A stretch of DNA of 64,000 nt from Eledone cirrhosa (lineage: Eukaryota). The notes under the pieces are model-generated. The model saw nothing but the letters and a program-made list of their open reading frames with translations, searched no databases and was not told the DNA's origin. The position numbers and the translations under genes are program-made. The stretch lies in NCBI GenBank assembly GCA_964016885.1, contig OZ024751.1:49538001-49602000 (forward strand). The letters are read 5' to 3'. How positions within the stretch are numbered: position 1 is the first letter of the stretch; every line of letters begins with the position of its first letter. Of this stretch, positions 2,892-2,986 are shown in pieces.

Positions 2892-2986
2892 ACCCCTTGA
2901 TAAGTTCGGCTATTTAAATACCAGAATTAATTTTTCATTCAGTACAGAATTAGCCGTCGAAACGGCTTGAGCTCAGCCGTCGGGGT
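2892..2986 (+). ncRNA. Type I hammerhead ribozyme, U3-A8 core variant
   Basis: Stem I ACCCC/GGGGT; core TTGATAA; stem II G..CGGCTA/TAGCCG..C with a long loop; GAAA; stem III CGGCT/AGCCG; GUC triplet with predicted cleavage after 2981. Confidence 0.7.

Follow-up and report, generated by a model that had tools for sequence, protein, structure and literature searches.

A Hydra-clade Penelope-like element with a hammerhead motif near its 3´ end

The window analyzed here, the whole 64,000-nt stretch of Eledone cirrhosa DNA, begins within a retroelement copy (copy 1) that carries a complete type I hammerhead motif at 2892-2986, with core UUGAUAA (a U3-A8 pair), GAAA and GUC (Table 1). By its sequence traits, the carrier is a 5´-truncated Penelope-like element (PLE) of the Hydra clade. 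Its 477-aa frame covers the last two thirds of a PLE protein, with the reverse transcriptase (RT) motifs FDI..YYAS and YRDD, a CxCX5C linker (CNCPDRSSC, aa 328-336 of the frame), a GIY-YIG domain C-terminal to the RT (VIY at 347, YIG at 362), and CxxC (CNLC, aa 426) and CxH (CKH, aa 454) motifs beside conserved E and N residues; inspection of the translation by eye revealed no CCHH motif. We placed the element in the Hydra clade because the linker, the CxxC and CxH motifs, the (TA)n target and the lack of CCHH match the traits listed for that clade in the accessible sections of Craig et al. (PMC8557442). The insertion itself is also Hydra-like, having a (TA)n target, inverted 5´-truncated arms and a tail at one end. 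A Naiad PLE, suggested by the RT motifs and the (TA)n target, was rejected given that the endonuclease here is C-terminal rather than N-terminal; Naiad elements also have no canonical hammerhead.

The best 120 of 220 homologues were 36-56% identical to the 477-aa protein, and in a quick maximum-likelihood tree of 43 rows the copy 1 protein grouped with three database proteins (SH-aLRT 99), one of them from the octopod Argonauta hians, a single name that makes a cephalopod the likely host. No Pfam family was assigned to the frame, no PDB sequence matched it, and no relative of the protein was found in viral contigs. In the region truncated in copy 1, homologues of at least 680 aa carry DK[TS] (60/61), RWK (35/61) or DKG (3/61). 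Given that only truncated copies are present here, we infer that a 700-aa ORF together with a 1.27-kb 3´ region would exceed 3.3 kb, as against the Hydra trait of less than 3 kb. The hammerhead core lies 1,174 nt past the stop codon in copy 1; in 47 of 48 related loci it lies ~100-550 nt past the end of the protein match.

Table 1. Positions of the PLE copies, hammerhead elements and related features in the window
Feature	Coordinates	Strand	Basis or remark
Inverted arm of copy 1	1-297	-	Reverse copy of 2512-2807, 97.7% identical; leaves window at left edge
5´-truncated open frame, 477 aa stop to stop	290-1723	+	RT and GIY-YIG motifs
Pyrimidine-rich 3´ untranslated region, ~1.17 kb	1724-2891	+	Sequence
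Helix I 5´ strand, ACCCC	2892-2896	+	Pairs with GGGGT 2982-2986
Core box 1, U3 U4 G5 A6 U7 A8 A9	2897-2903	+	Sequence
Helix II domain, 55 nt	2904-2958	+	Sequence, fold, reads
Rival hairpin, 6 bp, CGAA loop, burying G12-A14	2952-2967	+	Prediction
Core box 2, G12 A13 A14 A15.1 (GAAA)	2959-2962	+	Sequence
Helix III, 6 bp (2962-2967/2975-2980), 7-nt loop	2962-2980	+	Fold
C17, predicted cleavage 3´ of base	2981	+	Sequence, hammerhead numbering
Helix I 3´ strand and element end	2982-2998	+	Sequence
(TA)n insertion target	2999-3056	+	Sequence; begins 18 nt after C17
Mini-insertion, related subfamily, inverted 3´ ends	32566-32741	.	Tail to +98
Mini-insertion, related subfamily, inverted 3´ ends	47634-47767	.	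Tail to +98
Mini-insertion, two inverted hammerhead 3´ halves, no core box 1	51734-51926	.	Plus arm tail to +98
Copy 3 minus arm	58486-59726	-	Damaged hammerhead 58672-58578, C17 58582, then 80-nt tail; ends 97 nt after C17
Copy 3 plus arm, 3´ UTR only	59944-61102	+	Intact hammerhead 60997-61090, core 61002, C17 61085
Further hammerhead-like motifs	9999-10045(-), 30868(-), 33595-33653(+), 35367(+), 37073-37118(-), 37376(+), 50650(-), 50783(+), 51150-51190(-), 51187-51243(+), 51583(-), 51614(+)

The window also holds a second, young Hydra-clade PLE insertion (39111-46146), whose inverted arms are 99.75% alike over 3.2 kb and whose 656-aa frame (42207-44177) is 44% identical to that of copy 1. 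Each of its arms has two canonical hammerhead-like motifs, CUGAAGA (44565-44628/40623-40686) and CUGAGGA (46048-46111/39146-39209). A dozen further hammerhead-like motifs, which Rfam does not find, nearly all read CUGANGA, the one at 33595 reading CAGAAGA, and mostly lie within short inverted insertions into (TA)n. Long frames are opened at 22038-30270 by short GTG/TAG-rich repeats arrayed over 8 kb; weak Pfam matches there to TDP-43_N and pP_pnuc_1, with no passing stretch, look like composition artefacts.

Architecture of the copy 1 hammerhead

The first-pass annotation of this DNA had placed a U3-A8 hammerhead at the 3´ terminus of a PLE, and our analysis led to the same structure: the core TTGATAA is read at 2897-2903, loop II, put at ~38 nt, spans 38 nt (2913-2950), and our predicted C17 coincides with the cut expected after 2981. 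The motif has the three helices around a junction and the open-ended helix I of type I hammerheads, with all of the conserved positions U4 G5 A6 N7 and A9, G12 A13 A14, A15.1-U16.1 and H17, and its Watson-Crick 3-8 pair is U3-A8, as in 3/3 full copies in the window. The G10.1-C11.1 pair (2904/2958) is followed by a small internal loop (2905-2906/2957), in which 2905 is freely variable, and then by a 6-bp helix II (2907-2912/2951-2956) that encloses the variable, partly paired loop II. Folding also predicts a distal extension of helix I (2880-2890 with 2994-3003) and an internal loop in distal helix I. Helix III with its loop is nearly palindromic (predicted hairpin -7.1 and homodimer -30.7 kcal/mol). 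The minimal PLE hammerhead, an obligate dimer with a helix III of 1-2 bp or none, was rejected as a description of the motif on the grounds that helix III here has 6 bp.

The minimum-energy fold of 2892-2986 is the three-way junction (z = -2.24, with equally good shuffles in 4/200), though z falls to -0.77 for the longer piece 2885-2995, so that the fold is not exceptional with 7-9 nt of extra flank. With a descriptor that accepts any Watson-Crick 3-8 pair, the copy 1 motif scored 16; when the window was shuffled 15 times in blocks of 1 kb with dinucleotides preserved, the background per 64 kb was 0.4 hits at a score of at least 11, 0.07 at 13 or more and 0 at 15 or more. We regard the copy 1 motif as a genuine and probably functional type I hammerhead.

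Other copies in the window

As previously annotated, both arms of copy 3 carry a TTGAGAA box. The plus arm, with core UUGAGAA, has an intact U3-A8 motif. The minus arm, with the same box, has GAGAA in place of GAAA, such that not all conserved hammerhead positions are present, has lost one helix I G, and has two changes at the helix III tip. Thus the previous description of the stems, GAAA and GUC as in place fits copy 1 but not the minus arm of copy 3. Nor is N7 the only position that varies, as had been stated, since the plus arm differs from copy 1 also at 2894, 2905 and 5/38 loop II positions.

Only 2/54 structured positions, N7 and one C-G pair that became U-G, are changed between copy 1 and the copy 3 plus arm. 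Their UTRs differ at 215/1,071 positions with gaps included (120/1,100 substitutions), a rate at which ~6 structured changes would be expected, giving a modest indication of selection on the hammerhead; such conservation could also result from subfamilies exchanging their 3´ ends. Covariation within the family, assessed across eight window pieces, was not significant (156/500 shuffles as high).

Element ends were measured at 18 nt (two cases) or 97-98 nt (four cases) past C17. The arms of the mini-insertion that lacks core box 1 meet at 51784-51797, where loop II naturally contains a 4-letter inverted repeat, the kind of junction that a cDNA end folding back on itself would be expected to leave. 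Beside copy 3, a fragment at 58415-58460 consists of an inverted tail end joined to the element's final 20 nt, and a degenerate tandem repeat with a unit of ~40 nt (57514-57910) lies just to the left of the copy.

U3-A8 is the family norm in public reads

To obtain a family consensus, public reads from 4 of 11 listed runs (X1, X5, X8 and X9) were aligned to 2850-2999 at 80% likeness, a recruitment compatible with more distant CUGANGA subfamilies going uncounted. Among the raw X9 reads, 57/378 had C and the rest U (~85%) at position 3, and contigs of run X1 agreed (C3 18% by depth). Across all 27 variable places in run X5, U3-A8 occurred in two contigs and C3 with A8 in one; the single X8 contig over the core box had U3-A8. 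U3-A8 is thus the norm of the family in three organism labels, and the consensus is not CUGANGA; a CUGANGA consensus is what the first-pass annotation had named as fatal to its proposal.

The variation follows the hammerhead architecture. Among the best 40 of 71 variant rows, none falls at U4, G5, A6, A8, A9, G10.1, C11.1, G12-A15.1, U16.1 or C17, whereas variants occur at the bulged 2905 and at no fewer than 15 of the 38 positions of loop II; two of the four variable helix positions listed keep a G-U pair and the other two form the outermost pair of helix III. All four bases occur at position 7 (G 243, A 50 and C 43 of 382 X9 reads). Conservation across copies, which had been proposed as a check, is therefore seen for U3-A8 as the norm with a free N7, but not for the ~15% of reads with C3, for which no matching G8 was found among the rows listed. 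The A8G share probably is below ~7%, the lowest share listed. Since one X5 contig certainly is C3/A8, there seems to be a minority lineage with a broken C3/A8 pair that spread, which counts against a functional ribozyme.

One alternative is that the motif is a decayed canonical hammerhead in which independent C3U and G8A transitions in dead copies mimic compensation. Both changes are indeed transitions, all window copies are truncated and one arm is visibly damaged. However, U3-A8 is shared by all three full window copies, which belong to two subfamilies ~20% apart in the UTR, and by most X9 reads as well as contigs of three organism labels, and copy 1 retains a frame uninterrupted for 477 codons and arms 97.7% alike, leaving decay very improbable.

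In runs X1 and X9 the 3´ half of the hammerhead was covered ~25-30x as deeply as core box 1, a profile that is partly technical in X9, a reduced-representation library with read ends at AATT words. At 2947-2951, 107 X1 contigs and 1,108 X9 reads diverge upstream of 2951, with a sequence ending GTTCGGATC, which suggests an abundant sister family, absent from the window, whose helix II has an identical base and closes a loop II of 6 nt.

The excess of 3´ halves bears on a second alternative, in which the hairpins are retained to signal to the protein or to direct RT start or template switching, while catalysis is vestigial and the core is present by descent. The three mini-insertions without box 1, the existence of the C3/A8 lineage, and the finding that hammerhead mutants of an anole PLE still insert in vitro (PMC11167929) are in line with this possibility. 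Yet 5´ truncation of a full RNA also predicts short copies, making these uninformative about the template, and the X9 depth profile carries the technical component noted above. In addition, a free N7 with fixed neighbours is a catalytic signature, and the 3-8 pair is Watson-Crick in 48/48 relatives (see below). We consider it unlikely that catalysis is vestigial.

Repeated 3-8 swaps among related elements

A profile of 44 proteins recovered at least 78 metagenome loci (from the best 80 of 267) and 17 genome-contig loci, giving 95 loci that include near-duplicates. Seventy-nine reach the end of the protein; five of these have less than 100 nt beyond it, and the other 74 were scanned. The descriptor detected a hammerhead in 48/74 scanned loci, comprising 45 C3-G8, two G3-C8, one U3-A8 and no mismatched pairs, compared to 3/74 reversed controls with a hit at a score of at least 11. 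When the 26 loci without a hit and two short loci were scanned over their whole length with looser settings, eight more credible motifs emerged, all C3-G8. The G3-C8 loci (L132, at 285, and L190, at 2602) and the U3-A8 locus (L179, at 2103) are on marine metagenome contigs, and their cores are absent from the accessible part of the published Hydra table (PMC8557442). On the protein tree, with 36/48 loci, U3-A8 has two origins (the window and L179) and G3-C8 also has two. The G3-C8 call for L132 comes from the descriptor (score 16).

Across 23 loci the helices covary, with 72 cells changed on both sides and 0/500 shuffles reaching this level; L190 is misaligned in alignments A4 and A5 and was counted as unpaired there. 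The A9-G12 span is 54-55 nt in the window family, versus a median of 18 and a maximum of 36 nt in 62 C3-G8 motifs, and the helix III interior is 17 nt versus a median of 7 and a maximum of 14 nt. Helix II and helix III are thus longer than those of all 62 comparators. Animal-type PLEs with hammerheads were also noted in bacterial assemblies, mostly MAGs (L199-L215), where they most likely represent host contamination.

Enlarged helices hide the motif from searches

A literal CUGANGA box is a search convention. It was used, in CUGANGA-type descriptors, in the Hydra hammerhead searches described in the accessible text of PMC8557442, and was relaxed in what is accessible of PMC3088659 and PMC4209133. 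The previous claim that CUGANGA searches would miss the whole family is true of literal descriptors, but the core alone is not the cause, as Rfam also misses the canonical CUGAGGA hammerhead at 46058. There were no Rfam matches in the 64 kb at the gathering threshold, and at E up to 10 the copy 1 motif and its canonical neighbour gave unrelated chance matches alone. A covariance model from 21 C3-G8 motifs detected the compact U3-A8 motif of L179 (37.4 bits), L190 weakly (14.6 bits) and many other window hammerheads, and missed L132 and copy 1. Because this model finds the compact L179 and misses copy 1, it is the enlarged helices, not the core alone, that conceal the motif.

A 14-letter pattern matched 120 stretches in viral contigs, which we took as chance in GC-rich DNA, and a 24-letter pattern had no matches in metagenome contigs. 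Four short motif words, searched on one strand of the accessible supplement of Craig et al., in which line breaks may hide matches, gave one match, to an unrelated consensus.

A competing fold and the effect of the 3-8 pair

Helices II and III have identical 7-letter 3´ strands (AGCCGUC), making possible the rival hairpin listed in Table 1. For copy 1, the predicted shares are 0.30 (0.297) active and 0.013 rival. For the copy 3 plus arm, they are 0.004 active and 0.81 rival, which likewise counts against a functional ribozyme. Folding at successive transcript lengths, which describes the equilibrium at each length and not kinetics, gave the rival a share of 0.7-0.8 in transcripts ending at 2967-2977 and of 0.02 once 2980 was made.

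These predictions raise the tentative possibility of a two-state ribozyme, in which U3-A8 was selected given that C3-G8 would lock the G/C-rich scaffold in the inactive hairpin; such a switch would put off cutting until reverse transcription is over or the RNA has been refolded by the element's protein. In line with this, putting C3-G8 into copy 1 in silico reduced the active share from 0.297 to 0.001, the log gains from U3-A8 in the two intact window copies (2.35 and 3.58) exceed those of all 62 native C3-G8 hammerheads (median 0.47, maximum 1.97), and the rival dominates at the shorter transcript ends and then yields. This support consists of nearest-neighbour predictions throughout, however, and with the commonest letters at 7 and 2905 (G and A) the gain is just 0.56 versus 0.21, within the control range. 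Many control ratios are also at the floor, U and A are less prone to pairing in general, no gain was seen in L179, the compact relative with U3-A8 (0.22), and the helix duplication possibly is a template-switching by-product. More doubtful again is the fuller version, whereby the off-state of the duplicated strand would shield the RNA until RT passes the cut site, with U3-A8 selected to keep the on-state reachable.

Comparison with known hammerheads

The U3-A8 core swap itself already is known, including in PLE hammerheads, and its novelty, as implied by the first-pass annotation, was overstated. According to the accessible parts of the two papers, natural U3-A8 covariation was reported for several hammerheads in 2011, together with activity of U3-A8 in vitro in other scaffolds (Perreault 2011, PMC3088659, the latter citing its ref. 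32), and ~1,300 U3-A8 hits in Schistosoma PLEs were found with a dedicated descriptor in 2014 (Cervera and de la Peña 2014, PMC4209133). The literature searched, mostly outside subscription journals, yielded no description of U3-A8 in PLEs of the Hydra clade or of cephalopods.

The closest relatives are the Hydra-clade PLE hammerheads (Craig et al. 2021, PMC8557442, File S2), which, in the parts of that source available, share with copy 1 the type I fold, the position near the 3´ end on the sense strand, the palindromic helix III, the (TA)n target and the protein clade. The Hydra rows there have C3-G8 (26/26), a helix III of 3-5 bp with loops of 1-3 nt and a loop II of at most 10 nt, whereas copy 1 has U3-A8, a 6-bp helix III with a 7-nt loop, a 38-nt loop II and a 3´ UTR of 1.17 kb. 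The Schistosoma mansoni Cercyon PLEs share the core swap, the PLE terminal repeat and its family-wide occurrence, but their hammerheads, as described in the accessible text of PMC4209133, are minimal, without helix III, must dimerise, and belong to a different PLE clade and host; copy 1 is predicted to have a full helix III and a monomer-competent fold. Fungal and protist PLE hammerheads are likewise monomer-competent type I motifs with a long helix III (PMC4209133), and a Drosophila virilis variant has a bulge in helix II, recalling the irregular helix II base of copy 1. For both, the accessible text describes no core swap, and the elements are EN-deficient or of the Penelope clade, not Hydra. 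The variants in the accessible portion of Perreault 2011 (PMC3088659) share U3-A8 and include a U13a insertion in GAAA that resembles GAGAA of the damaged arm; the examples named there are from phages and bacteria, not retrotransposons.

In the anole Poseidon element (PAc; Frangieh et al. 2024, PMC11167929), copies pass the cut site and two internal RT start sites define the tail, as the element ends suggest here. PAc differs in having C3-G8, a hammerhead that overlaps the ORF start and a tail of 30-40 nt, compared to ~80 nt and a motif far downstream of the stop in the copy 1 family. Single PAc mutants at 3 or 8 are dead, and the compensatory double mutant is partly rescued. Cleavage requires the element's protein, the main insertion template is uncut RNA, and the hammerhead is dispensable for insertion in vitro (PMC11167929).

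What is new here is a U3-A8 case in the Hydra clade (0/26 in the published rows, and 1/48 related loci, of independent origin), the enlarged monomer-competent shape with a duplicated AGCCGUC and an inactive rival hairpin, and the C3/A8 lineage and repeated 3-8 swaps within the clade.

Discussion

We consider it likely that the motif is, as proposed, a type I Hydra-clade PLE hammerhead in which U-A has replaced C-G as the 3-8 pair and both helix II and helix III have become larger. All conserved hammerhead positions and the three helices are present beyond what shuffles give, N7 is free with neighbours that have no variant among the rows listed, and the 3-8 pair of every hammerhead detected in the related loci is Watson-Crick.

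A transcript through the 3´ UTR would, as a monomer with a long enough helix III, form the three-way junction, a dimer via the palindromic loop being an alternative route. A cut after C2981 could then release units of the element where the RNA is longer or tandem. Because copies end 18 or 97-98 nt past C17, the template appears to have crossed the cut site intact, and since the DNA copies span an intact site, cutting would have to be slow, conditional or reversible. Reverse transcription may begin downstream of the site and copy across it, as in the anole PLE; by analogy, the ends at +18 and +97/98 would match the two-start-site 'tail' model (PMC11167929). The rival fold may be one way to delay cutting, and selection of U3-A8 in a two-state ribozyme would be compatible with this explanation and would say why the swap took place. 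Insertion that does not need the ribozyme in cis would be in line with both the C3/A8 lineage and the surplus of 3´ halves lacking the core.

The published table understates the variety of Hydra-clade hammerheads, in which U3-A8 and G3-C8 each arose twice, independently, and large helices conceal hammerheads from string and profile searches alike. Copies with U3-A8, with C3/A8 and without the core coexist in one abundant family, which bears on the role of hammerheads in PLE transposition, a question posed in PMC11167929 and in the accessible part of PMC8557442, and the monomer-competent motif is easier to assay than minimal dimeric hammerheads. If the two-state switch were true, the family, given recurrent U-A and G-C swaps in the Hydra clade and a C3/A8 lineage expanding within one genome, would be a natural mutational series on whether PLEs need their ribozyme.
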